The notes beneath the pieces are model-generated. The model was not told where the DNA came from. It did no database searches and worked only from the letters and a program-made list of their open reading frames with translations. The position numbers were made by a program, and so were the translations under genes. From Phoronis australis (taxonomy: Eukaryota; Animalia; Phoronida), in the NCBI GenBank assembly GCA_002633005.1, contig NMRA01000352.1:230626-294625 (forward strand): a stretch of 64,000 nt of DNA. Reading direction: 5' to 3'. Position 1 is the stretch's first letter; each line of letters begins with the position of its first letter. Shown piece after piece: positions 2,459-45,875 of this stretch.

Positions 2459-4976
2459 AGTCAACTGTTCTTTCTACTTCAAAATTGGTGCTTGTCGACA
2501 TGGTGAAAGATGTTCACGACTTCACAACAAACCAACATTTAGCCAGGTACTATAGCGAAAAAATAACTGAAGATGTTATTCAATATTTAATTCCAAATAT
2601 CCAGACTGTGTATTCATTGCTTTTGACCTCCCTTTACTTGACGTACCTTCATGGGAAAACTAATGACGACAGCAGAAAATCACCTTGTCAGCCACTCGGT
2701 AAAGGCAAAATAACCATTGTCGCAATCTTCAGAATCAAGAAATTCAATTTTGGCTTTAATTTCAATGTCTCATACTTTGGAGGCTGTCCCAAACTAGAGA
2801 ATATTTATTGTAGATTGTTGTAACCATAAAGCACCTCAGATTCGTGTAGAAAATGAGTGATAGCCTCTTTAGAAAGCTTTCAATTCGTAATCTTCTATTT
2901 TGCCTATTTAATTTTGCAGCATATCTAACTCTGTGTGTACACATTGTGCTTTTCTTTTCAGACGATTGTGATTCCTAACCTCTATTTGAACCCACAGAAC
3001 TCTGCTCAGACGGCTGATGGATCGCACTGTAAGGACATTCTATTTCCTACTTCGGTCGTTTCAAAGTTATACTTAGGTTGGCTTCGCAATGGATGGTTTG
3101 TCAAAAATGTCTGGAGTTCATTCACACAAACTTTCAAAGTTCCTCGATTGAGATATTATGTGTTGTATTCCATTTCAAAAACAGGCAATTTCAAGCAATA
3201 ATTTTCAAACAAACCTTCAAAGATTGTCCCTTTGGGCTGATGAGCTGTTAAAGTTATGTAGGACCCTAGGAAAAAGCCCAAATTTGGCTTACGTCGCATC
3301 ATCATATCTCGGAAACGGCCAAGTGGGATTTACATGACACTCACAGAAACTATGCATTATTCCTCGTTCTCCAAAGCTGTTCAGAATTGTTTTTAAAACG
3401 GCAATTTCACATGAGTGGTTATCAAAAATAGGACTTTTATGATATGAAAACCTCGACAGTTGCATTAAGCAAAAACAAAAGGATGATTTATAAAACTGTT
3501 GCAATATTTTTGAGATCTCATCTTGAAAAGACACGGTTAGTGACCAAATAAATGACAGATGGTATAAAGTCAAAAATGTAAGTCTACATTCGGAAATATA
3601 CACTTCTACAGGTCTAGTGTTTATATTTCCTAGATATTTGACTAAATGCAGAGACTTGTCGATAAAGTTCCACATAACCTTAAGACTCTGTCTGCAACTT
3701 GAAGAGTGGTATAAGAGTGAGGAAAGTTGTGTATTTTTGACAAATGGCTTTGGTCATATACAACATACCACAACCTGTTACTATGGAAAGTGGTCTGTGC
3801 ACCATAAGCTGTGAGTAAATCTCTCAGTACTCGTGCAATGCTTTGCAAATCTTGAAATGTGGTAATAGTACTTGTAATTAGTGGGTATTCTCTTGCAGTT
3901 ATGTAATAAGACTATTTCTAACTACTATTGTTATGCAATGTGAAGTATTAGGTTTAGGGATTGTCGGCTCAATTTAGAGTTTGAGAATGGTGAGATGATC
4001 TACTTGGTATAGAAACAGCAGTTGTATTTTTGGAGCAGAATTCTAAAAAAATATTCGTCAAGTTCAGTATAATGGTTAGCTGCATGGAGTTATTCATATT
4101 CGTGTGTTTTAAGTACACGTTGAATTGCATTTTTCAACAACTCGCTATTGTGGTGAGTGAACACGTGTCAAACCAGTTTTATTGCTTCCAGTTGTCGTTA
4201 GTGACGTGGAAATGCAGCAGCACTACGATGAATTCTTTGAGGAGATCTTTGTTGAACTGGAGGCTAAGGTACGTAATTATGCCATACATTAATAAGCAAC
4301 TGCAAATACACTAGGTGGTGCTAGTGGAGCAACCATCTTACCTACAATACAGTGCATGCCAAAAATAATCGGTCAAAATGACCCAGAGTTTGTTGTCAAA
4401 AGAGCTGAGCGCGAGGGAAATATCGTGTCTGATTATTTTTGGGGTGTGCTGTATTGTGTTGTAACGTTTCCTTTCCAGCGTGAAAAACATTCATATCAAT
4501 ACAGAAACCTTATGGTTTTGGATTTTGTAATAATTTCTAAAAAGTCTGAGATGTCCTCAGCTCGTATTATATGAGGCAGCACATATCATTCCGACAATTG
4601 TTTAAGAAACAACTGTATCATCTCGCCTTGACTATCAGTCGCAGGTATAAACTTGAGCACCTAAATTTTTCATCTCCCACACTCAAGGAAATCTTCTTTT
4701 GCGATGCACTTTTCCTCAAAGTATTTAAAACACAATTCTGAACACACCTATCCCAGTAAAATTGTTGGCATTGATGATCAAATTGCTGGACTTGGCAAAT
4801 TGTTATTGGCATACTCGGGACTAGTACCTCACTGAACACACGGAATTATGCCATTTGCTTGTTGCATTTTTGTCTATGGGGAATTGAAATATTGGAACCT
4901 TTTCTACCACACTGGTTTTCATGCAGGTAGTGCGCGCGCATGCATGCCCCTGTGCACGCACACACACGCACGCACG

Positions 4977-5014
<38 letters not shown>

Positions 5015-8000
5015 AATGAATCATAACTGTAGATGTTACAAGAAATGACTGCCTTGCTTTGCACTATTTATTGAGTGCATTACTATAGAGTAGATTTTGT
5101 GTTCAGGTAAACTGCATTGTGGGTTTAGAGATGAAGTTTTAGCGGATGTATATACATTAGGTATATGAGCAGTTGAATCAAAGTCACATGTTAATTAGAG
5201 CATGATGCAATATCATTGTGTTACTTTACAGGATTTATTAAATTTAGCGCAATAGAAGTATGCGCATTGTAATTTCGCCCGATTAGCTGGATAAAAACGG
5301 AAATTAAATTAGGCCTTTTACTGTAATGAAGTCTGTCTCCATGATAAGAATCTCCTCTCCTCGATAACAATTTACTTCTATTGCCAGCAAGAATATCAGT
5401 GACTCAAGAAAGCGCTTCTGAGATTAATGGGGTTGGACAACCCTAAAAGTGCGAATTGGAAAATGGCACTTGTATGCGTTGCTTGTGACTTGTGTTGGTA
5501 CTAGAAATAGAATCCTGTCAAGGTAAGAGAGAGAAAGGCCTGATATTCAGTTTTTGTTTTTAGTCAACTGAACAGGGTCAAATGTAGCTTTAAATAATGC
5601 ATGTTGTTTTGGTTTTGTTGCAGTATGGTGAAATAGAGGAAATGAATGTCTGTGACAATTTGGGTGATCACCTGGTCGGAAGTGTCTACGTCAAGGTGAG
5701 CCTACATTGTTCCATCCGTTTGGTGGAAGGATATCTGTCATGTAATGTCTTCCTTTTGTATTCAAATGGCGCTGAGTACATCAGTTTTCAAAAAAGTTGA
5801 CGAATTCCGTCCAAAATTTTCTATTAGCCTTTATGTTGAAAATCTTGAAGAGAATTGGAAAAAAGTCATTTTCTGAAAATGATTGCAAAATTAGCGGAAA
5901 GTCTGACAGACAATTTTGGCAAACACATGTGAAAAGTAACTGTTACACACCGGAGTGAGTGCATGCTGTTAGAAAAAACTGTCTCAGCTGAGTTCTTTCT
6001 TCATGCAGGCTGTGTTTGTCACTGCACTGTTTTGATTTTTTTTACAAACTAGGCAACACAAATTTCTGATATTCTCTAGTCACTTCTCTCAAATAAGATT
6101 CCTTATGAAGCTGGTAAGTGTGCTGTAATGCAGATAATAATGTTCTCTGATTGACCTTTAAACGGATTGCAAAACGTCATGATATGCACAAAGGATTGTG
6201 GGAATTCATTCAGCCTACATGGTGACTTGTTCCAACTGAACTGTGTCATCATAATTGCGATTATGATTCTTTGGAGTTCTTTGGCGTATTTTCCTAACTT
6301 TGAGGTACAGTTTTGCATTAGAGAGACATTGACACCTCCTCAATTTCGTATGGGTTTAACATATTTTGCGCCATTTAAATGAATCAAAAGCACCCCTCGA
6401 AGCATACCAAGTGTAGTGCAGTAGCAGATGCATTTTTATGCGCCCACATATTTGTTTGTGGACGCATTATGCCGTCATCTCCGTCCGTCCGTCTGGCGTC
6501 ATGCATCCGGCATCTGCTGCTCTATCTCCTAAACCTTTTGACATACGTTCATAAACTTTAGCACATATGTTCGTTTTATTTGTACTATAGGCATCTATTG
6601 GTGAGATGATGCTATCCCGTTTTTGGATGGATTCGAGGTACTTTTTACCACCTAGTGGCCATTTTTCCTGTTTTCAAGTCTTGTTTTTTAGCGTCCACCC
6701 CTCGATCAACCAAACCATTCTAAGAATGAGTTTGAAAATTGGCGTGTATGTTTTCTGTGTGAAGAGGGCAGTTGTCTATAACGAATTCAACTACTGTGGC
6801 GTCTCTTAGTGATAGTTTTGTTTTGTTTTGCGCCCATAGCTACATCTCCTTAACACACTGCATGATCTTTATTAAATTATATTTATATGAAGTTAACAAC
6901 GGACAACATCTTTCAGGCCGATCCAATGAATGCTGTGCCCCATAGTGGCAATTTTATTTTTTTCTGTTTTCCTTCGTTTCTCTGAAGTTCTGACAGATTT
7001 TTTGGAAATTTGGCAAATAGCTTTCTATTAAAGAAGCGGTGTTATTTTCCTGTTTTCAGGTGGATTGGATGTTTTTGCGACATCTAGTTGCTATTTTTAT
7101 GAAACAAATAAACAAGCATAGGAGCACACCATTTGCGGTGCATTCGTGGGCGCATTTCAACGCTCCATGGTGCTCTTGTATATCTCTGTATTGCTCTTGT
7201 ATATCTCTGTATTGCTCTTGTATATCTCTGTATTGCTCTTGTTATAAGAAGGCAGAGACGACGTGTGATGAGATAAGTGTTTACAAAGGTATCCCTCTTG
7301 GATGTACCCTAAACTTGTGGGTAAACGCTCTTACCCGGGTAATCACCCATCCCCACCTTTTTGTCAATTTTTGGTTTAAGTGGTCACTGCTTGGGTAATC
7401 GCCCATCCCCCATTTTGTGCCAATTTTCGGTTTAAGCACCCCTCTGCTTGGGTAATCGCTCTCCCCACGTATCATCAGCTACACAATTTAAGCGCCCAGG
7501 GCTTTAACCCGCGAGTTTACGGTAGTTAGCATACCATTGTTGTGCAATATGTCATTGTTCTGGCCGATCACTGAACGAGTAGAGTCTAAGCACAAGTCAT
7601 GTCGTTGAAATGTAAGCCTGACATAGTAAAAATGACGATCTGCTGTCTAGTTTGAGGTGGACAATATGAAGGCAGTCCAGCCATCTTACAAGCATTCACA
7701 TGACATGATTTCAATATGCAGATCAGACGTCTAATCAACTTTCTCATCATGTTGCTCATGAAAGCTGTGTAACAGGGGACAAAACTAGATTTATTCCATG
7801 ACCTCTTACAAGAAGCATGTTGCTTGCACCAAAGCTTAACCTAGAAATTTACTTGCTAGGTGTTGTGATGAAGATTGAAATGCATATTGTTTAGAGATGA
7901 TATTGTTGCAGCCACCGTCAAATCAGAACATTCTTTACTACTTTGTTAAGTGTGGAAAGCAAAAAGGAAAAAGCAGTTTCAACATGGTGAAGTGCTGTGT

Positions 8001-9884
8001 GTGATTTATTATTTTCCTTGAACTGTGCCTAAAATTTTACATCTGACTCTGTTTGCAAGTTGCCTTGTGGCAGCCAAGTCACACAATGCTTTGATGATAA
8101 GTCTCAAAGTGGAACCAGTTATTTTTTTAGCATAATTTCTGTTGGATTTGTAACTGTGCTCACTGGTTTACCTGTCCTTTAGTTCCGTAATGAAGAAGAT
8201 GCAGAAAAAGCTGTTAACGAGCTCAACAATCGTTGGTTTAATGGTCGTCCAATCACAGCTGAGTTGTCTCCAGTGACAGATTTCCGAGAGGCCTGCTGTC
8301 GTCAGTACGAAATGGGGTAAGTGTTGTTCCATAACCATTGCTGACTTGTTTTCCAATTTTCTCTGTTCTGAACATGTGATAAAGTGGCATTATTATTTTC
8401 GCGATTATTGTTGAATGGGATAGACATTCACACTCTGTTTACGCTATAACTCCAGAATGACTCACTTTAAGTCGATATACCACCATGAGCTCAAGTCGCC
8501 ACGTTTGATCGTTTACACTCCATGTTCGCTTTATCCTGACTGGTTCAAATTGCCTTGAGTTCATGTTGATACTACCAAAAACCCGAGTCATTTTAGGTGC
8601 TGCGCCGTTTGCTAGAAGAATCCTGTCTATGTACGGATCCTTTTGTCCTGTGAAGAACTTCCTTTACAAAATGGCGGGCTTCTCTTGTTATCGAGAAGAG
8701 TACTACTGATGTGAATTTTGGGTCAAATTGGACAACAGCATAGTCGTTCAATGGCAATTTTGTTTTTGTTTGTTTGTTTTTTTCTATCTGTCAAGCTCCT
8801 TGATGGATGTTCATGAAATTTGCAAATAAATTACTATAACTTAGCCCAGTTCAGCTCATCGGTTTGTTGTGTGAACATTACATCAATATTATCCACCTTG
8901 TGATTGGATGAAAACAGACATGGTTGTTCTGTAGTGTACGAACTGACCGTACGTAATATCCCGTTGGCCGTTTTAATTTTTTCAATAGTGCCTTTTGATG
9001 ATTCCTGACTTTGAGAAATGAGCATTATTGTTTTCAACCCTCTTTTCGTTTTCTTCAGCCTCTGTTTATCAAATTGCTCAATAAGTGGGGTCCAATTGTT
9101 TTAACGCTTCCTGGTGACAATTTTTTTCATCCACAGATGTATCTCATAAACACCTTGTAGGATCTTGTGAAGTTTCGAAAACAACATGTGACAACTCCTT
9201 TCAGATGAATCTGACTATCACTGTGCCTGGTGGTGTTATTTTTGTTTATTACCTGTCCCTGATATCTTCGGATGACAATGGAAATGAGTCTCTAACTTTG
9301 TACTGTCTTTGTTTCCCACTTGTACTTTGTTATGTATTTTTCTTGTATTTTCTGTACTTGTGTGAGCTAAATAAATAAATAAAAAGTATTTGGAGTTCCT
9401 GGATGGATTTTTGTGAAATGTGACAATTAGATTTCTATTAAGGAGATGTCAAGGCCTTTTCGTTTTCAGACTGGTTGGAAAAAATCTGCGCCACATAGTG
9501 CCGATTTTTTTATACTAATTAACAACCCCGGAAGCATGCCGTTTGCGGTACTCTTGTGAGCCCATTTCAGCGCACTACTTGTTCTTTTTACAGTGTTTGT
9601 TCTCTCAGATTATTGAAATATGTTAATAATTGCGTTGTATAATTTCCAGTGAGTGCACCAGAGGGGGCTTCTGCAACTTCATGCACTTGAAGCCAATCTC
9701 TCGTGAACTGCGCCGTGAACTATACGGACGTAGCAAGAAAAATGGTCGTCGCAAGTCAAGATCGCGCTCACCTAATCGTCGAGGATCACCTCGTCGCAGA
9801 AGGTCAAAGTCGAGGTCACGTAGCCGCGAACGCGGTGGCGGTGGCGGTGGAAGGCGAGACAGGGAGAGATCCGGCCGTTTCTAA
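2459..9884 (+). CDS. U2AF1: Splicing factor U2AF 35 kDa subunit, 5'-partial (exon 1 lies upstream of the window)
   Basis: GT-AG exons 2459-2546, 2962-3028, 4192-4268, 5624-5695, 8183-8316 and 9650-9884 splice in frame. Product: [173 protein letters not shown]...RS/poly-Gly tail...SGRF*. This gives two CCCH fingers, a UHM and an RS domain, matching U2AF35. Confidence 0.97.
4955..5012. repeat. (CA)n / (CACG)n microsatellite
   Basis: Directly visible; in a U2AF1 intron. Confidence 0.95.
6433..7180 (+). mobile_element. DINE-1/Helentron-type non-autonomous element (HINE-like)
   Basis: Starts in a T-run. 5' subTIR ATGCGCCCACA is followed by a nearby inverted copy (TGTGGACGCAT), then (CCGT)n, then CCYCCTAGTGGC core repeats, 3' subTIR GTGGGCGCAT and a GCTCTTGT end. 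A longer family member is at 28630-30327. Confidence 0.65.
7171..7242. repeat. 21-bp tandem repeat (TGCTCTTGTATATCTCTGTAT) x~3.4
   Basis: Directly visible at the 3' end of the DINE-like element. Confidence 0.9.
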
Positions 9885-13771: not shown

Positions 13772-13890
13772 TGCACACGGCACGCTTCATGCGTTGGCCT
13801 TATCTGCGGTATTTGTACCGTGACACAATATTGCACATGACAGTGCGCCCGGCTTTTGCACACGACACCCTAATATACAACAAATATAAG
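13772..13890 (+). promoter_or_regulatory. Metallothionein promoter: three metal response elements plus TATA box
   Basis: TGCRCNC cores at 13772 (TGCACACGG), 13844 (TGCGCCCGG) and 13857 (TGCACACGA). TATAA at 13885, ~120 bp upstream of the ATG at 14005. MREs are MTF-1 binding sites (established). Confidence 0.85.
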
Positions 13891-14004
13891 GACGAGTTTC
13901 GCGATTGCCATTCATTAACACAAGCAGCTAACGCTACCAGAAGTGTAACGCACTGTGTGTGACGACGTTCAGTATATTGACAACGCGTAGTTTTAATATC
14001 GACA

Positions 14005-17000
14005 ATGGCAGATTCAAGTGAGTAGGACCACCGCGTACGCACTTTGATGTGTATTAATATCTCTAATTTAGCCTAAATTTACACTTTCTTATACATCACA
14101 TTCCGTGTTATTGAGTTATTGTATAATTCTTAAATTGAGTTTAAGCAGGTTTCTATCTACTGGTGATGCTTACGGCCGCTATTGAATTCAGCCGCTCACC
14201 TCTAAAAGTGACCGACGATTTCGGAAATAAAGTTCGCTGATACTGGCGCTCCCTTGATCACCTACAGGTGCAGTCTAACTGTTTTCAGGTAAAACATGTA
14301 CGTGCGAGGCCATGTGCAAGAAGGACGTCCCCGCGTGTACTCCTCCTGCCAAATGCGAGGGTCCGTGTAAATCATGCAAATGTGCAGGTAAATGACGCGA
14401 TCCTTAATTATTCATGATTAAAAATACAGTCTTGCAATTACTGTCATTTACTGTCACATAGGCCGCGGTGCGCCGCATCTGTCTTTGATTTTCTTGTAGG
14501 AAGCTGGGCGGAAACCAGCTTTTATTTTTTTAAAATCTGTTCAAAGTAAAAAAATACTGACTAAACACGTATATCTCGTGAAAAAATAAAGACAAGTAAA
14601 TAAGAATAATATTTTGTTAGAAAATTTAGAGATAACGGACTTAAAAGATATTTGCACATAAGTACAGCCTGGTAAAGGTTTACAGTTACCTTAAACGTCA
14701 AGCCTAACGCCAAAACGCAAGTTCCCATGATATCATGGTTCTACCAACACGACATACCGATCTTTTTTCAAAATAAAGACCTAATGTTAATTTAAAGTTA
14801 AAAATTTCAATTTCTAGTGCTGTGGGATAAATGGATGCCTCGCATACTTAAATAGCCGTGAGAGAATATTAAGTTCAGTATCTAGGACCGGTAGCGGATG
14901 AGGGGGGGGGGCTCAGACCCCAGGTCGCGGCGGAATTGTGTTCCCGTTTTTTTTTTCCTTATTTTTTAGTCCACCGACAGAATTTGCGAACAGAAGGAGA
15001 AGGCCCACACCCTCAGCCCCCGCAACTTTCGGGCCCCCTGTGCACATACAATCGCGCTTTGCCCAATTCCCCGAGGCAACATGTTGGGCCCCCCTTAGCC
15101 GCGTATCCTAGATCACTGAATAACCTCGATACCGTCGTAGACTGTATTTATGAACGTGTATAGATACATGTATTCTGTATTGCGTTCCTTTATTTTGTAT
15201 TATACACGAAGGTATCTAGCGTAATCATTATTATGGTGCTGTCCCCTTATTCATTGGTAACTACTAGCCACGACAAGAATGAATGAAGTGCTTATGTTTG
15301 TTCCTCTCACCAGGTGGCGACTGTCAGTGTGGTTGCGGATGTGACTCCAAGACCGCCTGCAAGTGCCCCGTCACGTGTTCATGCATCGTAAGATGCGGTT
15401 GCAGGGGTGAGTCATTTCTATCAACATCCCAACAGTTATCGCTGCATTGCTCATCGGGAGATTTCAAAATAATTTCTCTGTTCAAAAAAGTTCCTAGTGG
15501 GGATCAGGGCTCATTAGTTCGTAACACAGAACGAAATCCATAGTTTTCGCAGTATTCTTTTCGCAGTATTAGTTTCTGGATGAATACCGCAGGAAGTTCA
15601 TTAAGACGTTTTGAATATTTTGTCAACAATTTTGACGGAAGGTGAAAAAGGCGATGACATCGGTTTTGGAAGCGGAGACTGATGGTCTGACGCAAAAAGG
15701 TGCTTTGAAGCCCGGAGGCACAGTGCATATTTGTGCGTGAAACAGCTTGGTAGTAGTTTTTGCCTTGGTGAACTATGTTTGTCAAGATGTGTTATATTTA
15801 AGTCCCCGGTGTTCGTGTGTGTCGAAGGTGAAAGTGTTAATGTCGGCTACTGGTTTATGCGTATGTATTAATTGTCTCTCCCTCGCAGTATCCATTAGCA
15901 GCGTCTTTTCAGTTCTCGTTTAAAGCAATTCTTTTTTTGCAAACTGTAGTTACTTTCTCACCAGCCACAATATTCACTACTTATTCTATGGTTACTCCGG
16001 TATATGGTGTGTCATCTGCCCGACTAAGAGTCACGTGACATTTGTATATGTGTCCACTTGCTGCTTTTTAGTTGATTTGCGTCGACTGGGAATTCAAATT
16101 TCATGTATTCTTCTTGTTGTTCACTCACTAGGGGGCGCCTGCGAGTGTGGGTGTGGCTGTAGCTGCTGCGTGCCATGTTGTTGCCAGATCACGTGTTCCT
16201 GCAAATCCAACTGCAAATGTGCTGGTAAGGACCTACTCTAGCTGTTGTACTAGACAAATAGTTTTGTAAAACCCTTGCTATGCAACGACTCGTGGTGGAG
16301 AGTTTTACCGGTCTTCTAGATTTTTCATCACACGTCCGGTGAACGTGAGGGTGATTATTGTGCCAAATATGCTCTTTTAACTCAAAGCTTACTACGTTAT
16401 CGTCTATAGTCTAATATATGAGAAATTATTACAGTAAGTTCATAACTTTCAACGGGCAAACTGGTCACTGCTGCTACATTCTGGTATTTACGCGCAAGAA
16501 ATCCATGTGCTTAAAATGCATGGGTTCACGATAAAAATCAATGCTGGTGACAATGCCTCTGGCGAGGAAGAACACTGGTGTTTTTTGCCTCGGATGTCAT
16601 ATTATGCTCAATGATTTTTTTCTACAGGTGGCAGTTGCCAGTGTAGTTGCGGCTGTGACTACAAGACCCCCTGTAAGTGCGCGAACGCCTGCTCTTGCAA
16701 ACCGGCCCCGTGCTGTGAACCAAAGTGTAAATGCGCTGGTGAGTTGATGTTACGGGCTCCTATGAGGCCAAAAGCAAACAATGTTTTAAATGACATGCCC
16801 GGTCTCCGCACAATCACGTCGTTGCAGCTCTGAAACTGGTTTGAATCTGGTAAAAAAGTTGATAAAATAAGATCATAAAACAACGTCACCACTTTTGCCC
16901 ATCAGAGGTGGATTTACCTTCGAATATGTGCGCAAGTAAAGATATCGTGCCACTGCATCAATTTTCAAAAAGGCGAGAACCAATTATAATTTTTGGCTGT

Positions 17001-20000
17001 AGTGTTGTATTACCTATAACCATTTTAAGGTGTGTGTATGCCAAGGCAATGTCTGCCTGAGGTATCCTTGAATTGTTTACTACATGAACGTATTGTTGTA
17101 AAGCTACATGCGCTTGTTTTTGTGTCTGTAACCAAATAAACATCAAACATTAAAGTTTTAGCATGAATTCGCATTTAGGCAACGTGAAGTTCTCAATTTC
17201 CAACTCGCGTTATTTTCATTTTTGTCAATAGGTGGCAGCTGCCAGTGCGGTGTCGGTTGTGACTCCAAGACCCCGTGCAAGTGCCCTGACACCTGCTCGT
17301 GCATATCCGTATGCAAATGCGCAGGTGAGTTAATATTATGGTCTCCTATGAGACCAAAACTGGGCATAGTTGGTTCTGGTCTGTGCTCCTTCTTACTTTG
17401 AAACCTGCGCCTCACTCATTAAAGAAAAAAGCGTCCACGGATCCATTTCAGACGAAGCCTCGTTTTTTTGAATTTCACCACAAACGCAGACAAGCAACTG
17501 GTTTTAAACGCCCTGTCACCACCTCCCCCCATCACTGACAACCACGTCGCTGCATCGTTAAGTAAAGAGTGATTTGAGTATAGTAAAAAGAAAGAAAGCG
17601 GTGCCCGACTTTCGCCAGTTTCCGTTGGATTTGCCCTCGAAAATTTGCGGTGCCACTGAATCAATTTTCAAAAAAGACCGGGGTTTTAAATTGGAGCATG
17701 AATTTTCCTTTACACAACTTTAAGTCCTCATAATTTCCCTCTCTTTTGTCCTGGTTAAATTTCTAAAATAGGTGTTGGAATGTCGTGCAGTTACCCAAGA
17801 TTAAGAAGAGTAAAATATTATAAAGTAAAACGATGAACGTAGGAACCAAAATATATTAAAATATGACTGACGTTCGTCGTTTTACTTTATACTATGTTAC
17901 TCATTTTAAATTTCTGTCAATAGGTGGCACCTGCCAGTGCGGTGTCGGTTGTGACTCCAAGACCCCCTGCAAGTGCCCGGACACCTGCTCGTGCATATCG
18001 AAATGCAAATGCGCAGGTGAGTTGATATTATGGTCTCCTATGAGATCAAAAATGGGCATAGTTGGTTCTGGTCTGTGCTCCTTCTCATTTTGAAACCTGC
18101 GCCTCACTAATTAAATTAAAAGAAAAAGGTTCCATGGATCCATTTGAATCGAAGCTTTGTTTTGTTTTGAAAATCACCACATTAGTCAGGTGGATTTGCC
18201 TTCGAAAATGTGCGCAACTAAAAATAACGCGTCAATTTTCAAAAAGGCCACCACCAACTATGTTTTTGGCCGTAAAGTTGTATTACACACCTGTAATCAG
18301 GGAGTCGGTATTGGAAGGTGTGTGTAGGCCAAGGCAATGTCTTTGTGAGAGTGTCATCCAGTCGCTAAATACATTTATTTCATTATTGTAACCCTGCAAG
18401 CTTGTCTATACCAAATGTGTTTACATGTTCGCTGCTGGGCACTAAACGTTGAAATTTGAGCATGAATTTTCCTTTACGCAACGTGAAGTCCTCAATTTAA
18501 CTTGTGTTAATATAATTTCTGTCAATAGGTGGCAGCTGCCAGTGTGGTGTCGGTTGTGACTCCAAGACACCCTGCAAGTGCCCCTACACGTGCTCGTGCC
18601 TATCGAAATGCAAATGCGCAGGTGAGTTAATATTATGGTCTCCTACGAGATCAAAACTGGGCATAGTTGATTCTGGTCTGTGCCCCTACTCATTGTGAAA
18701 CTTGCTCCTCACTCATTAAAGAAAAAGCATCCGCGGATTCATTTCAGATGAAGCCTCGTTTTTTGAAAATCACCCTAGACGCGAACAAGTAAAGTTTTAA
18801 ACGCCATACCATCAACTTTCCCCCCACACGAAGATAACCACGAAGCTGCATCAATAAAACTGATTTGAGTATCCTAAAAAGAAAGAAAACGGCACCACTT
18901 TCGCCAATCTCACTCATGTGGATCTACCTTCGAAAATGTGCCCAATTAAAAAAATAAAGCATCAAGTTTCAAAAAGGCCACGACCAACTATGTTTTTACC
19001 GTAAATTTGTATTACACAGCTGCAATCAGGGAGTAATTGAAGGTGTGTGTAGGCCAAGGCAATGTCTGTGTGAGAGTGTCATCGAATCGTTAACTACATT
19101 TAGTCCATTATTGTTACCTTGCAAGCGTGTCGATACCAAATGTGTTTATGTGTTCGATACTGAGCATTAAACATTGAAATCTGAGTTCTCATTTACATGA
19201 AGCAGTCATCAATTTAACTTGTGCTGTTTTTATTTCTGTCAATAGATGGTAACTGCCAGTGTGGTGTCGGTTGTGACTCCAAGACACCCTGCAAGTGCCC
19301 CGACACGTGCTCGTGCAAACCGGCTTCCTGCTGTGAACCGAAGTGTAAATGTGCTGGTGAGTTACCGTCATGGTCTCCTACGAGGCTATAAGGGCATAAC
19401 TTGCTTCTGGTTTGTGCTCCTACTAATTTTGAAACCTGCGCCTCACTAAAGCAAAAACTTCCACGTATACATTTCATGCGAAGCCTCGTTTACTTTTAAC
19501 AAACACACGCACGCACGCACGCATGGTTTTAAACACCGAGTGCCATCAGCTCCCTCACCCCCTCCGGCCCCCCTCACAAACAGCCATGTCGCAGTAGCAC
19601 TGAAATTGATTTGAGTACGGTAAAAAATTACGGCCTGGTTCCGCCAATCTCAGGTGGATTTGGTTTTTGGAAGTGTGCGCAACTAAAAAATATCGCGCCA
19701 AAAACTCATCAATTTTCGGAAAAGGCCAGAATAAGTTAATATATGCTTTAGTTGTCAGAGTGTTATATTGCACACCTATTGGCAAGGAGTTTATAAAGGT
19801 GTGTAGGGCAAGTCATTGTAAGCTTACTTTGTGTTTACACGTTCTCTTTTAAGTAGTAATCGTTAAAATTTAAGTATGAATTCTCATTTACGAATTGTGA
19901 AATCGTTGATTTCTCACTGGTGATATTTTCGGTTTTGCCAATAGGCGGCAGCTGCCAATGTGGTTGCGGATGTGACTCCAAGACCCCCTGCAAGTGCCCC

Positions 20001-20579
20001 GACACCTGTTCGTGCATATCGCAATGCAAGTGCGCAGGTGAGTTGCTGATAAAAATTTTAGTCTCACCCACAGACGCATTACTTAACGGTTGCAGTCTGG
20101 TACAAGAACAAAAGGCTTAAAAATCCTTGTGTGTGTCGTTTAGGCAAAGTGAATTTGGTTCAATACTCTGAAATTCTCAGTTTTCGGATTTAATTAATTT
20201 GTTAAGATAACAAACGTCGGGTTCGCGACTGACCCTGGTGAAAGTGTGTATAACTAATGAACATCAAACTAAGTCGCCACTATTTTCATTCTTCAGGTAA
20301 AATTTAAAATGGCGTTATATGCGTGCTTCCTGTCACAAATTCTGATGTTGGGAATTTGCCGTCATAAAAGTGGTCCTATCTTGTCATTTACTTGGCTTAA
20401 AAGTAATCTCTCAACAGTTAATACTTCAGGTCTAGCTCATAGAATTTCATGTCTTGTATTTAGGGTTTTGATGAAATTATTTTTAAAATTTTGTAGCAGG
20501 CGACGAGTGCAAGTGTGGAGTAGGTTGCAAGAAGGACACTGCTTGCCCGTGCAAGGATGACTGCAGCTGCCGCACTTAG
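14005..20579 (+). CDS. Large multi-domain metallothionein (MT-A), ~324 aa, 98 Cys
   Basis: Exons 14005-14017 (MADS), 14289-14387, 15314-15406, 16132-16224, 16628-16738, 17232-17324, 17924-18016, 18529-18621, 19246-19356, 19945-20037 and 20497(or 20500)-20579. All introns are GT-AG and phase 1; 975 nt open to TAG. Typical module: GGSCQCGVGCDSKTPCKCPDTCSCISKCKCA. About 30% Cys in CxC motifs, almost no aromatics. MRE promoter; AATAAA at 21115 and 21185. Confidence 0.9.
16560..20060 (+). repeat. Tandem exon+intron duplication array, 6 units with ~600-720 bp period
   Basis: Exons start at 16628, 17232, 17924, 18529, 19246 and 19945. Flanking intron sequence is also repeated, e.g. GTGAGTTRATATTATGGTCTCCTAYGAGAYCAAAA and AATTTTCAAAAAGG. 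Confidence 0.9.
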
Positions 20580-21938
20580 AGCGCCGCCTTTTGATGGAGC
20601 TGGGGAACCTCGGGGTCATGGTTTCCTTTCTCGATTCGGAATTTATCTGCTCTGTCCTCGTTATATTCCATCGGTTTAATTCCAGAATACATAGTCTTCT
20701 TATCTATTGAATACTGTTTATGTTGTATAATCATCCCCTATCTGCTTTTATATACTTGCCTGGTTCCCTTTACTAAACTTGTCAGTTCTCTTTGAAAAAC
20801 AGTAAGGTATATGTTATTCATAGACAATGGTCAAGGTGGCCATGAGAGGTTAATTGTTGAATAGACGTGGCCATATAGAAGCAAAGTTCAGTGTCTGTGT
20901 AACTTAAAGTTTTAAACCTCTTCCTCTAAAGCTTGTTAAACATGTGTTATGTTAATGACCTAACGAAATGTTTTGTAATTAGGAGTGTCGTCTGCTGAGC
21001 TTTCTAGATTACACTGGGAAAAATCTGTTTCAGACGACTTCAAGTGTAAACCTATTTAGCTCAGCACACAAAGACATTTACTACTCTGTATAAATACAAG
21101 TACTGTATACACACAATAAAATTATCACAATCGACAAGAATAGTTCCTTACTTGTGTTATTAAACGCTCAATTATGTTCTCATCAATAAAAGTATACTTG
21201 GTCCAGTGCATGCATTGAGAACGTCATGCGAAAAATTAAATAGAATTTAATCTATGGTTATTCTATCCAAAAGTAACCACTGAAAATAACGTCAATTTTT
21301 TGAAATTCAAAATTTACAAAATGTACTTACAAAAAACCTTTTCGTAAACACAATGACGTCATTTCAAACGCTTCACGCATTGTCTCTTGACGTACATTTA
21401 GAAGTGTATGGCACCCTCAAGTTGCCTTGAACTTTCGCCTCCTCTGGAACACCTCTGGTATTTTAGTTGCCTAAAATTTCGTTTAGAGGTGAACGTTATT
21501 CTTACCTCAGTCACACGGCAAATCATGTGACTTTCAAACTGTAGAATAACTGACAGTCACGTTTGAGGGCAAAGTTAAGGCTCGAGACTACCCGATGTTA
21601 AATCAAAATGCGCCCTCCTTTGTCAATGACTAGTGTGAAAACGGTACAAGCTGCCGCAAGTTCATACAAGCAAACGTTCACAATGAATTCAAGAAAATTC
21701 GGAAAGAAAAGACTTGTGTAAAAACACAAAATTTACAATAATATTTGGTATTCACATCCTGATGCACCGTATGTTGGTGACTACTCATGGCAGTCTGGAA
21801 CTCTACAGAAACAATCCATTCAGTTGCGCTGAGCAAGCCAAGACAAGGTAACAGTCACCTTGCATCGACGGAACGGAAACTAATATTCTACGTTTTGAAG
21901 TCCATTTTCAAAAGTTCAACCCTCACGTTCCCATTTTG

Positions 21939-22662: not shown

Positions 22663-22748
22663 CTGAAAAGCAGCGAAAATAACTAAAATGTACTTTGTTA
22701 AGCCAAATCAACATTACTTTCTTCTGCTATATTTTACTAATTCCTTAA

Positions 22749-24045
22749 AGGAGCATGCCACCCAAAAATCACCTATTTTGTATCAATTTAGATCGAGTAG
22801 TTCTACTCCATAACGACACGTACGGTTGCGTTACCTGACACCTGACGGCAGACGGAGGTGTTGAAACTATCTAATGACGTAATTGGTTTCACACGCAGTC
22901 TGTTCAGTAGTTCACAACACGGGTTACTGGTGTCAGCTTATCGCTTGAATTCATCGTTTAACACAAATAAATCATCAAACTTCGATGTAAAACCCTTAAA
23001 AATACACCGAGTTCTTATAAAAACGTGTTGTCTGATTTCGCTGTTATGGATTTATTGTTATTTGGACACACCGTAGCCAACAAAGTTCGGCAGGCCAATA
23101 AAGTCCGTAGCAGGAGTTTGGGGTCTTTTCGGAGATAAACTTTCGAAGTATTTTCCGTGAGATACAGACAGGAGAACCTAGATCTGTGTTGTTTAGACTT
23201 GTGATCTTTTGAGTTCTAAACACAAAACGCTTGTTATAGTGGCCAGTGGCTCAGAGCCCCGGCAATCAGGCCCGTTTCGAAGCCGGCCGGATTGACTCGT
23301 TATCCCGGCCTGAGTGGCTTGGAAACTGATCAGACATCACGAACATAAACCAGCCAAAGTTCAGTGGAAACTAAACTTCCAGTCAAGAAAATACTATACT
23401 AGTGAGCCAAAGTGCACGTGATTATGTTGGTGAATTAGCCAGGAAACTGCAAATCTACTTACTCGTCGGGGGCCGCGAATTCAAGTTCCGCTTTGGCCAC
23501 AGCACCGTCAGGGCAGAAGCTCTACATTGACAATCATTATTTGAATAATGTAAATGTAAATAAAGATTCCCCTGATACCTTGTCGTGGGATGGCAATCGA
23601 GTTGTTTCACAAAAGTTTCTGCCAGTGAACACTAAATTAGCATGAGTTCACACGGACTCGGTGTCTCGTCAATTAGTTTTATTGCACCTAAAGCCGGTAA
23701 CGCAGTGATTTATTCATTGCTGGCCCCTCAAATCATTTGCACTCACGAACACTCCAAAGGCATTACAAATTGCATCTAATGAGACAGACTTTGTTTTAGT
23801 TTTATATAAGTATTGGTTAGGGTGAGAATAATTCATTTTGAAACAGAACGCTCATGTAATAAACGTCAACATGGCAACTCGCAATCCCGACTTAGGCAAG
23901 CTAGAGTTTATCAGTCCCGACGAAGACTTCACAGGTGGATCGTTAAGTTTCACAGGCTATCAATTCGAACAGGAATACGGTGATGAAGAAATGCTAGAGA
24001 GGCCCCGTGAACAAGCTCCGGCAGACAACGGAACTTGCAGGTGAA
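22749..24045. mobile_element. Kolobok-like element, right end not found
   Basis: TTAA|AGGAGCATGCCACC left end. About 1.3 kb is collinear with 45876-47100. Absent at the equivalent site of the second duplication unit (~33680). Confidence 0.6.
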
Positions 24046-26473: not shown

Positions 26474-26764
26474 TGCACTCGGCACTCTTCGTTCATACGT
26501 GAGTGCCGCGTCTGCATGTGGTATTTGCACCGTGGTGACACAAAATTACCTGCCGGTACCTCATGACATAGTGCGACCGGCTTTTGCACACGGCACCCTA
26601 TATGTACCTCTGCAGTGGAGTTATCTCCCTTTTCGCTAAAGTGGCGAACACCATTGGAATGCTCGATATTTTCAGCATCTCAATGGAGACATGTTGGGTT
26701 ATCACTGAATGGCAACTGAAGAATGGAAGCCTCCATTGAACGGCGCGTAGCAAGGTCTATATAA
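26474..26764 (+). promoter_or_regulatory. Promoter of MT-B: two intact MREs, one mutated MRE, TATA displaced by a ~150-bp insertion
   Basis: TGCACTC at 26474 and TGCACAC at 26585. The middle site reads TGCGACC. TATATAA at 26758. Collinear with the MT-A promoter. Confidence 0.75.
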
Positions 26765-26860: not shown

Positions 26861-29800
26861 ATGGCAGATTCAGGTGAGTGGGACCACCGCGTACGCACTT
26901 ACATTTATATTTTCTTATTCAATTCAATATAACTGTCTAATTGTTTATTTAAATCTAACCAGATTTTTATTCATTGATGATGTTTACCGTCGCTATCGAC
27001 AAATATTCGGGTACAAAAGTGTCAAGTAAAATTTCTTGCGAGATAAGGAGCTCTTAGTAATCTCAATATTGAACACGGTTCACCTCAAAGAAGTGATACG
27101 CTCCCTTGATCACCTTGGGTTCAATCTTAACTTTTTCTTCAGCTAAAACGTGTATGATCGAAGCAGTGTGCAAGAAGGACGTCCCTGCGTGTACTTCTCC
27201 TGCCAAATGCGGTCCGTGGGAGTCTTGCAAATGTGCAGGTAAAATGATACAATGCTCATTGTGAATAAACACAGGCATGCAATAAATTTAAACAGTTTGT
27301 TTACCGTCACATCATGTCGCGCCGCATCTGTCTTTGATTTTCTTGTAAGAAGGTGGGCAGAAACCAGCCTTAACTTTTAACTTCGAGGATCGCGGTCGTT
27401 TGAGCTGCAACAGGTGACTCCAGAACAAGGGATTCCGGCCTGTTTCGGCCAACACAAGGGACTTTTTTCTTTTTGAAAAACATCATGCCGAATCAATTTT
27501 CAAAAAGGCAATCCAGAACTGATTATGCGATTTTTGTTAGCCTTAAATCGTCAAGCCCAACACCAGAACTTATTGCTATGATGTACTACCAACACGACAT
27601 AACAGATTTTTTTTCAAAATAAAAACTAAATGTTCAAATTTTAAGTTTAAATTTACAATTTCTAGTGCTGACTGGCATAAATGGCTGCCTGGCATATTTG
27701 ATTAACACCGAACTGCGATTAGAAACACAACCCCGATCATTACGGGACATTGTAAATTGAATTTAGACACAACAACATGTGTAGATATACTACTTTACAG
27801 CAATCAATTTGCCCTCAGTACAGTTATCTCCCTTTTCACCAGTGCTGAACACCATGGGATACTTGCCTCCCGTTCAGTAACGCTAGGACCTCGCTAAAAA
27901 GCAAGACTTCGCGAGATTATGTGAGATATTGCCGTGTATTTTAAATGAGAACATGTGACTTTGACTAGGTTTTAGCTAGGTCCTAGCGTAGGTCCCAGTG
28001 TCTCAGTACTGAACGCACGCCAGGCGCTGTTCAGTAACGCTAGGACCTAGCTAAAATCTTGTCAAAGTCACGAGTTCTCATTCAAAATACACGGCAATGT
28101 CTCATGTAATCTCTAGTCTTGCTTTTTAGCGAGGTCCTAGCGTTATTGAACAGAAGGCTGATGCTCACTGGAAACAACAGCTGGGTAATCACTGAATGGC
28201 AGGCTAAGAATGACAGCCAGCCTCCTTTCAGTTGAATGGCGCGTATCGTAGGAAGGTATGTACGAAGGTATCTAGTTTAACCATTATTACTGTGGTCTCC
28301 TTGTTCGTTGGTAACTACAAGCCAGGATAAGAATGACGGGCTTATGTTTCAACGGTTCCTTTCACCAGGTGGCAGCTGTCAGTGTGGTTGCGGATGTGAC
28401 TCCAAGACCGCCTGCAAGTGCCCCGTCGCGTGTTCATGCATCGTAAGATGCGGTTGCAGAGGTGAGTGGTTTCTATCATCATTTTTATTGTACAGTTATC
28501 GCTGCATTGCTCTGAAAATCTTAAGTAACATCGGGAGATTTCAAAAACATGTGTTCGAAAAAATTCCTATACTGGGGACTACGACGCATTTTCGTAACGC
28601 CAAGAATGAAATCCATAGTTTTCGCAGTATTTTTATGCGTCCACATATAAATATGACGTTCGTTCGTCCTTCCGTCCGTCCGGGCGGCGTCCGTCCGGCG
28701 TCCGGCGTCCGGCGTCCGCTGCTCTGTCTCCAAAACCCTTTGACATACGTTCATGAAATTTGGCACATATGTTCCATTCTTGAATGGGACGGCATATGAG
28801 CGAACTTTTGGACGGATCCGACTACCGATGTGCCCCCCAGTGGCAATTTTAGTTTTTTACGCTTACCTAGTATCTTCAAAAGTCCTGAACGGATTTTCAT
28901 GAAATTTAGTAGGTGTTAGTGAGATGACGCTATCCTCCCGTTTTCGGATAGATTCGACGTAGTTTGCGCCACCTAGTGGCCATTTTTACTGTTTTCGAGT
29001 CTGTTTTTGCGTCCACCCTCTATCAACCAAACCGTTCAAAGGATGATTGTGAAAATTGGCATGTATGTGCTTACTATAAAGAGGACGGCTGACGATGATT
29101 TTCCGACGATTTCGACTACTGTGGCGCCTCCTAGTGACAGTTTTGTTTTTTTGCGCCTATGGGTGTATCTCCTAAACCGTTCGCAGGATCTTGACGAAAT
29201 TTCGTAAGTATATTTATGTTAATAACGGACGACGACAACTTTTGGACAGGTCCGACTACAGGTGTGCCCCCTAGTGGCAATTTTATTTTTTAAGTTTACC
29301 TTTGTGTCTTTAAAAGTCCTGAACGGATTTTCATGACATTTAATATGTAGGCACCTATTAGTGAGGTGACGCTATCCTCCTGTTTTCGAATGGATTCGAT
29401 GTAGTTTGCGCCACCAAGTGACCATTTTTAATGTTTTCCCCTCTATCAACCAAACCGTTCAAAGGATGATTGTGAAAATTGTCATGTATGTGCTTACTTT
29501 TATGAGGACGGTTGACTTGATTTTCCGACGATTTCAACTACTGCGTTGCCTCCTAGTGGCAGTTTTGTTTTTGTTGTGCCTATGGCTGTATCTCCTAAAC
29601 CGTTCGCAGGATCTTTACTTAATTTAAATAGCAAATGTATTTATATGATGTTGACTACGGATGACGACGACTTTCGGATAGATCTGACTACTGCTGTGCC
29701 CCCTAGTGGCAATTTTAGTTTTTTACGTTTAACTCTGCATCTTCAAAGGTCCTCAACAGATTTTCATAAAATTTTAAATAAAGGCATTTATTGGTGTGAT

Positions 29801-31653
29801 GACGCTATCTTTCTGTTTTTGGATGGAATCTAGGTATTTTGCACCACCTAGTGGCCATTTTTGCTGTTTTCAAATCTTGTTTTTGATGTCCACCCCTGTG
29901 TCAACCAAATCATTTGAAAATTGGCAGATATGTTCTCAGTGTGAAGACTACCTTTGATGATGGTGACTGACTACTGTGGTGCCGCCTAGTGGTAGTTTTG
30001 TTTTGCGCCCATAGCTGTATCTCTAAACCCACTGCAGGATCTTTACTAAATTTAGTAAGTGAATTTATATGAAGCTAACAACAGACGACGACGACTTTCA
30101 GGCGGATCCAACGGACACTGTGCCCACTAGTGGCAATTTCATTTCATTTTATTTTGTTTTCCTTTGTTTTTCTGATGTTCCTTGACGGATTTTTATGAAA
30201 TGTGGCATGTTCCTGTTTTTGGATGGATTGTATGTGGCCATTTTTATGACACAAATAAATAACCCTAAAAGCAGACCATTTGCAATGCATTTGTGGGCGC
30301 ATTTCAACGCTCCGCGTTGCTCTTGTTCTAGTAGTATTAGTTTTGGGTGAATACCCTAGAATTTATTAAGACGTTTTGAAGATTCTGTCAACGATTCTGA
30401 CGGAGGGTGAAAAAGAGGATGACATAGGTTTTGAAAGCATAGACAGATGATCTGGCGCTAAAACAAATTCGATAAATTAGGTTTTTCATAGTTTGGGACG
30501 ATATTTAAGGTAAAAATTCACCTACTAGGAACTTGTTTGTGGTTGATTACTCGGACATTCCATCCTCATCTGAAGGTCTTTCAACTTATGGATTATCCGC
30601 GCTTTGTTGAATGGGGTCATGACCACGGACTAGCTGTAGACCTTCGTTTCGGTTCACGGTGGGCTTTCTGTTCCTGATAAAGACGGCNAATACTTCGAAA
30701 ATTCTCATTTTCGGATTTAACGGATTTGTAAACACTCCATACACAAACATCAAACTAACTCAGTACTATTGTTATTGTTCACGTAAAAATTAAAATGACA
30801 TTGTGCGCGTGCTTTCCGACGCAATTTCTATTATTGTTTTTTCCACAACAAAAGTGGTATTAAATTGTCCCTTGCTCGGTTTTGATGCGATCTCTGGAGT
30901 CGGTAAGAACTAAAAATTTGTTACAACTTGGGGCGAAGCTTATAAAATTTCATGTCACGGCGTACCTAAACTGGAATTTTATAAAAAGAAATAACGAACT
31001 GACAAATATGTAATGATGTCTTCAATCAATGCGTGTGCACACTTAGCAGCAAGTCCAGGATTCGAACCCCGGTAAGGAAATATGTCTTTTCGGACTTGAC
31101 AATAATTCACGCGATTTGATCAACATACACGTAAGGCCTATACGAAGACTTAAGGATTCTTATTTAGACGAGTTGTCACTAGAGTTATTTGGATGTCCTG
31201 AAATAAGCTCCAATATGATTGCGGAACAATTTGAGACTAGTTTCATAACTGCAAGAGGCCCTTGAAAATCAAAAACTGCTTTAGACAGAAAGCCCGGATT
31301 TAATGCCAACTTGACATACGTGCGAAAGTAAGCGAACACATAAATTAATACCTTCACACAGGAACTATGATAATTTGGTAAATGGTAAAATTGAATTGTT
31401 CTAATTTATTTTCTTGATCATGCTTTTGGTTTTCATGAAACAGTCACAGCGGAATTATATTTTCATTTTGGTGTTGTTAGGGTTTTAATGAAAGCATTTA
31501 AAAAATTTTGCAGCAGGCGACGAGTGCAAGTGTGGAGTAGGTTGCAAGAAAGGCACTGCTTGCCAGTGTAAGGATGGTTGCCTCTGCCGTTTGATGGAGC
31601 TGGGGAACATGGGAGTCGCCTTCTCAACTTCGGTGTTCGCAAAATTTCGTTAA
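26861..31653 (+). CDS. Metallothionein paralog (MT-B), ~113 aa as assembled; possibly decaying or incompletely assembled
   Basis: Exons 26861-26873, 27143-27238 (KTCMIEAVCKKDVPACTSPAKCGPWESCKCA), 28369-28461 (GGSCQCGCGCDSKTACKCPVACSCIVRCGCR) and 31514(or 31517)-31653 (GDECKCGVGCKKGTACQCKDGCLCRLMELGNMGVAFSTSVFAKFR*). These correspond to MT-A exons 1, 2, 3 and 11. 23 Cys. Confidence 0.72.
27865..28158. mobile_element. Two ~150-bp MITE copies in inverted orientation
   Basis: Element with CGTTCAGTAACGCTAGGACCT...AGGTCCTAGCGTTACTGAACG inverted ends. Forward copy 27865-28024, reverse copy ~28027-28158. Single copies at 50203-50356 and 51925-52083. Confidence 0.75.
28630..30327 (+). mobile_element. 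DINE-1/Helentron-type element with expanded internal core repeats, in MT-B intron 3
   Basis: TTTTTATGCGTCCAC start, (CCGT)/(CCGGCGT) microsatellite, about three ~420-bp internal units with CCYCCTAGTGGC motifs, and a GTGGGCGCAT...GCTCTTGTT end. Absent from the equivalent MT-A intron position (~15555). Confidence 0.7.
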
Positions 31654-44242: not shown

Positions 44243-44713
44243 NNNNNNNNNNNNNNNNNNNNNNNNNNNNNNNNNNNNNNNNNNNNNNNNNNNNNNNNNN
44301 NNNNNNNNNNNNNNNNNNNNNNNNNNNNNNNNNNNNNNNNNNNNNNNNNNNNNNNNNNNNNNNNNNNNNNNNNNNNNNNNNNNNNNNNNNNNNNNNNNNN
44401 NNNNNNNNNNNNNNNNNNNNNNNNNNNNNNNNNNNNNNNNNNNNNNNNNNNNNNNNNNNNNNNNNNNNNNNNNNNNNNNNNNNNNNNNNNNNNNNNNNNN
44501 NNNNNNNNNNNNNNNNNNNNNNNNNNNNNNNNNNNNNNNNNNNNNNNNNNNNNNNNNNNNNNNNNNNNNNNNNNNNNNNNNNNNNNNNNNNNNNNNNNNN
44601 NNNNNNNNNNNNNNNNNNNNNNNNNNNNNNNNNNNNNNNNNNNNNNNNNNNNNNNNNNNNNNNNNNNNNNNNNNNNNNNNNNNNNNNNNNNNNNNNNNNN
44701 NNNNNNNNNNNNN
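44243..44713. other. Assembly gap (471 N)
   Basis: Run of N. Confidence 1.
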
Positions 44714-45875
44714 CCGAGGGATTTAACCAACTTAAAAACTTTTTCTAGGCATAACCAGAAAATCATAATTCAGTCACTGAAAACGTATCATAAATCGTAA
44801 ATAGTCGACATGGAGGCTATCAAGAGAATTGCGTTTCAAAGAACACAAACTTTAGAAAGATCTGAAAATAGATAGATTTGATGAAAAAGTGTCAGTTTGT
44901 TTTATTTATTCAATGCCTTACACGGTGTCGTAATGTGTAAGTCACACTTCAGGGTCTTGTTCGTGAAACTGGAAAGAAAGTAAATGATACTGGACCACAC
45001 ATGTATCCACCTGCCACGTTGATCTAGTTTTATTTTAAATTTTTAAACATTCAAGTTATTAACATATTTTAAATTTACAAACAAGTTGTTAACACATCGC
45101 TCCCAGAGATATCTTAACTCTCAGCCATCTTACTTTCACCTGAGTCTCCATAGGTATCAAGTCCATTCAACTTCTGTCAAATTCACGCCATTGCCAAGAG
45201 CAAGAATTCACCATAGGAGATGCGCGTGCATGGCGAATTGTGAACTGTTGGCTATTCAACACTAAATGTCAAATTTTCATTTGTCTGTTGAACAAAATCG
45301 AAAATTTGAGAAAACTCGTAAAAAGGTCATTACTGGAAGCCAAGTAGAGAATTGGTGATTTGCAACGATTTACTTGCATTATATCTGCGGCCAAAGCCAA
45401 TAACTTCAAGAACTCATTTTTTTCCAACAAGAATCACAAACATACTTTTTCGTCGATCCTACACTTTATAACCGAGCGCATCCCTTTAACCAGATTATAT
45501 TTGAAAAAAGTGCATATTTCCGACAGAAACAAACAAATGGAGATTGGGAGTGCAAGTAAATAATATTAGGCTACAATTTTCAATCCAAAACATCACTATA
45601 AGTATGATAACATACAGGGGGCTCTTTTATGACTTGTAATGTGAACAGCATTTTATATCAACGAGATTAGAGTGATTGGAACCACAAAACTATTTAAACT
45701 CACCTTCCCACGCAGGAGCATAAGTCACAAACGGCCTGGGACACCCCTTGAACATAGCTGACCACTCGGGAGGAAAAACTGAAACAGTGTAGGTTTAAAC
45801 TGAAAGACACGTATCCTTTCGTCAATCGCCAGGAGTCATCTATAAGCTGACCTCATAAGTTATTCATGGATTTAA

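Follow-up and report, generated by a model that had tools for sequence, protein, structure and literature searches.

Long metallothioneins (MT) have arisen many times, so that size by itself is unsurprising. AbiMT4 of Alinda biplicata (319 residues, 85 Cys) consists of nine beta3 domains and one beta1 domain, and binding of 30 Cd ions was measured (PMC7826182, PMC11645667), three Cd ions per 9-Cys repeat having been measured in this ten-domain snail MT (PMC11645667). BscMT1 of Botryllus (365 residues, 105 Cys) contains nine repeats of 12 Cys, with a measured content of 36 Zn ions and a capacity that scales with repeat number (PMC8476144), while OdiMT2 of Oikopleura is 399 residues long and varies between populations from 3 to 7 repeat units (PMC8283569). 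In the papers cited here, the domain that is repeated in long gastropod and arthropod MTs is the N-terminal one (beta3 and D1a, respectively). In these papers the mollusc beta1 domain and its arthropod equivalent D1b, with the 9-Cys pattern [CxC]x3-6[CxC]x3Cx5-6[CxC]x3-5[CxC] (PMC7826182; PMC13168519; PMC12800444), mostly occur as a single terminal domain; beta1 is listed as doubled in a few bivalves or as alternating with beta3 in Neomphaliones (PMC11101346). No long chain of beta1 domains and no description of an MT from nemerteans, phoronids or brachiopods were found in a literature search that had most subscription journals outside its reach. A brachiopod MT has reportedly been used as an outgroup in work on snail MTs.

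The gene described here, located in a 64,000-nucleotide stretch of DNA (the window), is a spliced and expressed gene, probably for a cytosolic multi-domain MT that consists of an N-terminal stub and nine copies of beta1 and would be a metal sink grown by unit duplication. A preliminary description had placed this protein of 324 residues among the largest animal MTs; it is indeed large and close in length to AbiMT4 but falls below OdiMT2 and BscMT1. The definition of a classical, small, two-domain MT of less than 100 residues does not fit it. With the published beta1 and D1b domains, its repeats have in common the pattern [CxC]x3-6[CxC]x3Cx5[CxC]x3[CxC], the C-terminal position and, as judged by eye, similar non-Cys residues. 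With AbiMT4 it shares size, a chain of 9-Cys domains and the expected stoichiometry, whereas AbiMT4 repeats beta3 and has an intronless gene (PMC7084494), as opposed to repetition of beta1 with one exon per repeat in the giant MT. Like BscMT1, it has nine tandem domains, but the ascidian 12-Cys pattern was unmatched. OdiMT2 is similarly very long and modular, with the variation in repeat number within a species that is suspected for the giant MT (see below), but its Cys pattern is unrelated and, according to a figure legend, its introns do not delimit every repeat (PMC8283569). Amphioxus MT2 resembles the giant MT in having intron 1 after four codons, phase-1 introns and a tandem pair of MT genes (PMC8476144; PMC3419175; PMC5412396) but has just two or three domains of a 9-Cys pattern that was unmatched here; identity with amphioxus MT2, raised by the position of the first intron, was ruled out by this pattern. 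The multi-domain MTs of Biomphalaria and Crassostrea are multi-exon, exon duplication has been proposed for them and three proximal metal-response elements (MREs) occur in Biomphalaria, but their domains are few and of other types (PMC5578137). Thus, the recurrent design of long multi-domain MTs was already known, and what appears new is the repetition of beta1, nine copies of which make up nearly the entire protein although beta1 is thought to be a single, stabilising terminal unit, together with exons that are out of step with the domains.

Gene Structure and Expression

Eleven exons joined from the window gave a sequence of 975 nt that encodes 324 residues, 98 of them Cys, followed by a stop codon. 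All ten introns were GT-AG and all were in phase 1, and internal exons measured 93, 99 or 111 nt. Exon 1 (13927..14017, + strand, as are all others) comprises the 5' UTR, four codons and 1 nt (ATG at 14005, coding 14005-14017). Exon 2 (14289..14387; 8 Cys) encodes the 6-Cys N-terminal stub and the opening CxC of beta1 domain 1. These are followed by exon 3 (15314..15406; 93 nt, 10 Cys), exon 4 (16132..16224; 93 nt, 13 Cys), which is the module diverging most, and exon 5 (16628..16738; 111 nt, 12 Cys), which carries a CC-bearing insert of 6 residues. Exons 6 (17232..17324), 7 (17924..18016) and 8 (18529..18621) each have 93 nt and 9 Cys, exon 9 (19246..19356; 111 nt, 11 Cys) has an insert like that of exon 5, and exon 10 (19945..20037) has 93 nt and 10 Cys. 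Exon 11 (20497..21133) encodes the final 7 Cys of beta1 domain 9 (coding 20497-20579, stop codon 20577-20579) and continues into the 3' UTR, where an AATAAA was noted at 21115. The exon set, protein length and Cys count of each exon were identical to those of the preliminary description, and its claim that eleven exons splice into a single ORF was borne out by RNA junctions.

RNA data consisted of three stranded runs with the same species label (X2, X3 and X4; reads of 151 nt) and contigs of run X1. Junction reads were noted for nine of the ten introns (introns 1–5 and 7–10) among 15 of 32 joints listed, with 10 to 222 reads per junction and run (for example, 141, 117 and 222 reads for exons 1 to 2 and 50, 54 and 95 reads for exons 2 to 3), and the strand of all such reads in X2–X4 was that expected for a gene on the + strand. 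Coverage of the introns was near zero except at repeats. Intron 6 had no junction row of its own among the same 15 of 32 joints, and a 93-nt back-joint from the end of exon 6 to the start of exon 6 was noted instead (14, 13 and 61 reads). Splicing of intron 6 likely shows up as this joint, because a variant at 17930, present in nearly all RNA reads, makes exon 7 begin with the same sequence as exon 6. A single 460-nt contig of X1 covered exons 1–5, and another contig of this run stopped at 21133, just past the AATAAA; 5' ends of reads accumulated at 13927 and 13932. Since reads were only 151 nt long, no molecule that covered exons 1–11 was seen in these data. None of 12 exonic RNA variants checked, from 40 shown with 193 further variants beyond these, resulted in loss of a Cys. 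The giant MT gene is thus real, spliced and expressed. A tandem acceptor was noted ahead of exon 11 (window positions 20494-20499), the first AG of which was used by reads with the gain of one Ala; a similar tandem site is present in the paralog described below as gene 2.

Domain Architecture

Eight published Cys patterns, including beta1 as given in Table 1 of PMC7826182, were run against the spliced protein. The beta1 pattern had nine non-overlapping matches that tiled residues 34–322, the last ending 2 residues ahead of the stop. Five of these were exact and the other four contained extra Cys; repeats were 28–29 residues long and separated by linkers of 3 or 9 residues. In 2000 shuffles of the protein, by comparison, the maximum was two matches, which occurred four times. 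The 98 Cys were accounted for by 81 in the cores of the domains, 7 extra within domains, 4 across two linkers and 6 in the N-terminal stub. The beta2 pattern had two matches only, which crossed domain borders and did not tile the protein, and the remaining six patterns had none in the spliced protein. These included gastropod beta3, the absence of which indicates that this is not a beta3-repeat MT, and the four patterns of amphioxus MT1, amphioxus MT2, ascidian 12C and vertebrate beta.

One intron was located inside each beta1 match, after the opening CxC, so that an exon contains the final 7 Cys of one domain, a linker and the opening CxC of the next. As judged from the Cys patterns, the metal-binding unit is thus likely to be the beta1 domain that spans an intron rather than the exon, giving a stub followed by nine domains. 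The ten modules, one per exon, of the preliminary description stand as far as the exon is the repeat unit, but the beta1 domains are out of step with these exons. An MT in which each exon forms a 9-Cys cluster of its own, with a permuted register and ten domains, would agree with the exactly 9 Cys in each of exons 6, 7 and 8, with the exon as duplication unit and with a spacing in these three exons equal to that in the middle of the mollusc alpha pattern (Table 1 of PMC7826182). We consider it unlikely, as this register leaves the last domain with 7 Cys, places the 6-residue insert within a domain and as a whole matched none of the eight patterns, compared with nine matches of beta1 in the shifted register. 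The latter accounts for the mere 7 Cys of the last exon and places the inserts of exons 5 and 9 in inter-domain linkers. It also fits gene 2, in which two Cys of the stub are lost and the CxC that opens domain 1 is retained. On the strength of these three features of the sequence, the intron-straddling beta1 register is favoured over one domain per exon. Non-Cys residues at the domain starts also resembled, by eye, those of chiton and caudofoveate beta1 in Table S2 of PMC7826182.

Protein Properties and Predicted Function

The protein was 30% Cys and contained 38 Lys, 3 Asn and 2 Tyr but lacked Phe, Trp and His; CxC motifs numbered 45 and CC motifs 5. In the Atlas, the top result for both queries was a metallothionein cluster at 0.83–0.84, values which, being less than 0.9, constitute a lead only. 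Profile searches of single modules, which the preliminary description had put forward as a check, failed to connect the protein to known MTs: none of seven single exons, nor either of two exon-spanning ORFs, matched Pfam, and the amphioxus, ascidian and vertebrate patterns were unmatched as noted above. No homologue was found among longer proteins (87 residues or more), in a set of 1.84 billion representative sequences or among PDB sequences with queries that were pieces of 26–50 residues of biased composition, which makes these negatives weak. Queries for similarity and fold were single-exon pieces, which under the beta1 register are not whole domains, and an AlphaFold prediction for one exon was of low confidence (pLDDT 55, pTM 0.28).

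This lack of an MT profile or sequence match would also be expected of a Cys-rich structural or redox protein, either disulfide-linked or a thiol buffer, without stable metal clusters, and a centipede protein with Cys-rich repeats has been ruled out as an MT (PMC12800444). Such a protein is nevertheless quite improbable here given the exact beta1 spacing, the non-Cys residues common, by eye, to mollusc beta1, the partial retention of MRE sites in both paralogs and an N-terminus without a hydrophobic stretch (maximum hydropathy 0.1 over N-terminal windows) and hence without a signal peptide.

As an MT, the protein would act as a high-capacity metal sink. By analogy, each beta1 domain would wrap three Zn or Cd ions, for a total of approximately 27, or up to approximately 30 with the 17 spare Cys, because 9-Cys domains bind three divalent ions and Cd30 was measured for AbiMT4 (PMC11645667). 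The earlier proposal of an MT that binds roughly 30 divalent ions is, to the extent of this analogy, upheld by 27–30 ions from nine beta1 domains. An excess of Lys over Asn is associated with Cd preference in gastropods, a rule that failed in tunicates (PMC8476144) and may not carry over to the Lys:Asn ratio of 38:3 in the giant MT.

Growth by Duplication

Identity among module exons 5–10 was 78–94%, and exon-plus-flank units were 70–89% identical when aligned. Introns 5–9 were mutually homologous whereas introns 1–4 and 10 had no shared sequence, which indicates recent tandem duplication of units of 600–750 bp atop older duplications. Substitutions among exons 6, 7, 8 and 10 were mostly synonymous, with pN/pS of 0.13–0.27 in the six pairs; exons 5 and 9 differed with pS of 0.57 and pN of 0.10, and pN/pS was 0.36–0.40 in pairs with exon 3 and 0.59 between exons 3 and 4. 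Growth by whole-exon duplication, as earlier proposed, was thus supported in that the homologous units comprise both exon and intron. Unequal crossing-over may have copied these units, each with one symmetric phase-1 exon, and each copy would add one complete beta1 domain though no single exon encodes one. A genomic record of chain growth is preserved here in the homologous exon-intron units and in exons out of step with domains. The giant MT also permits tests of beta1 as an internal repeat and of exon versus Cys register as the boundary of a cluster. Over-assembly of the array was rejected because all exons and introns are distinct; if the array is mis-assembled, under-assembly is more likely.

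The Downstream Paralog and Transcript Forms

A tandem paralog, gene 2, was located approximately 6 kb downstream in the same orientation (26861..31653, + strand; exons at approximately 26861-26873, 27143-27238, 28369-28461 and from approximately 31514). Its non-coding parts were 69–86% identical to those of the giant MT gene. Splicing of gene 2 was evident from 103–135 reads per junction in X2 and X3, compared with 0 at those junctions in X4. Its last exon was joined in RNA to an exon-7-like module (170, 177 and 2 reads) absent from the assembled copy, and no direct join of its exon 3 to its last exon was noted among 15 of 315 joints listed. At least one module exon of gene 2 is therefore missing from the assembly, with the single N at 30688 as the likely break. 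The frame of gene 2 in the assembly extends approximately 18 residues beyond the position of the stop in the giant MT gene. That the two genes are alleles assembled in tandem is unlikely, given the limited identity of their non-coding parts and the difference in expression between runs. A repeat with a unit of approximately 433 bp occupies 28640-30330, in the third intron of gene 2, with a related copy at approximately 6500-7180; heavy RNA coverage of the former came from other copies.

Exons used as alternative cassettes or as parts of shorter transcripts, the 324-residue form being rare or absent, are very improbable, for although every internal exon is frame-symmetric, so that skipping is tolerable, and joints were noted from exon 7 to 9 (89, 56 and 67 reads), 3 to 8 (36, 58 and 0) and 7 to 11 (56, 63 and 2), the latter two follow gene 2 expression, the exon-7-like module joins the last exon of gene 2 itself once gene 2 is included in the reference, the 7-to-9 joint is possibly mis-mapping between near-identical exon ends, and depth was even (146–189) over exons 4–8 in X4, a run with almost no gene 2 expression.

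A departure from even depth was noted further downstream. Thus, depths in X4, estimated from bins, were 156, 189, 146, 154 and 157 for exons 4 through 8 and approximately twofold greater for exons 9 and 10 (356 and 329); point depths were 154 for exon 8, 325 for exon 10 and 165 for exon 11. In addition, a back-joint that linked the 3' end of exon 10 to the 5' end of exon 9 had 78, 62 and 109 reads in the three runs. Because of this doubled depth and back-joint, the sampled animals may well carry a second exon 9–10 pair, encoding a protein of 392 residues, 119 Cys and eleven domains, as either a longer allele or a pair collapsed in the assembly. A 3' UTR depth of up to approximately 260 speaks against this reading, and both signals could alternatively arise from a third paralog not seen here or from circular RNA. 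If repeat number does differ between individuals, this would be the second such case after Oikopleura.

Promoter

Promoter sites were identified by the MRE consensus TGCRCNC and by the TATA consensus. Three MRE sites of the giant MT gene (13772, 13844 and 13857; 13772..13863, + strand) are situated no more than 160 bp from the RNA start, and a TATA-like box (13885..13889, + strand), approximately 40 nt 5' of the RNA ends, aligns with that of gene 2. By a Poisson estimate, the probability of three MREs in one given 200-bp interval was 0.001, yet among the 65 MRE sites of the window there were four overlapping clusters of three in 200 bp, that is, three partly overlapping ones besides that of this promoter. 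Sites 1 and 3 were retained upstream of gene 2 (26474 and 26585). The giant MT would likely be metal-inducible via these sites; MREs are, however, a limited guide to induction, because Cd did not induce the multi-domain MT gene of Biomphalaria, which has three MREs (PMC5578137).

In the gene 2 promoter, an insertion of approximately 150 bp (26600-26760), with weak similarity to fragments of repeats at 27816-27859 and 28164-28218, lies between the MRE sites and TATA box, and the middle MRE is also altered. Judged from sequence, these two changes could have altered the inducibility of gene 2.

Source Lineage and Remainder of the Window

Upstream of the giant MT gene, six coding exon pieces of U2AF1 (U2AF35) were found at approximately 2460-9884 on the + strand. 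A tree of this one short gene was made from 48 rows, namely 30 named and 17 unnamed sequences, from 120 listed of 750 matches, and that of the window. These rows included no named brachiopod, phoronid, hemichordate, amphioxus or arthropod. The window sequence fell into a group of annelids, molluscs and a nemertean that was separate (support 95/96) from the echinoderms, the vertebrates and an acoel, and it was outside the mollusc group (93/92), with its shortest path, among the rows taken, to the nemertean Tubulanus. No identical U2AF1 was present among the best 120 of 750 matches. The tree indicates that the giant MT gene likely comes from a non-mollusc lophotrochozoan. If this animal proves to be nemertean, phoronid or brachiopod-like, the range of beta1 would extend into a sparsely sampled region of the tree.

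A broader picture can be offered tentatively, as one that falls somewhat short of probable: an MT of a non-mollusc lophotrochozoan phylum from which none has been described, composed nearly entirely of beta1, an ancient domain that in other animals is a single terminal copy, which grows domain by domain by means of an out-of-step exon and is still changing in length, such that living animals have an eleven-domain form (approximately 392 residues, 119 Cys) that rivals the longest MTs.

Several minor features were also noted. Beyond the MT genes, 284 ORFs scanned against Pfam had four weak matches. THAP-domain fragments at 37284-37598 (+ strand; E 1.5e-5) and 47051-47375 (- strand; E 1.3e-4) are probably transposon remnants. 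An open frame of 115 codons with the appearance of coding sequence (59483-59830, + strand) had no Pfam match and a PDB match at chance level only. The assembly contains a gap of 471 N at 44243-44713. Two copies of a 1.3-kb element, 76% identical to each other, were located at 22745-24034 and 45872-47097, the first of which drew RNA reads on both strands.
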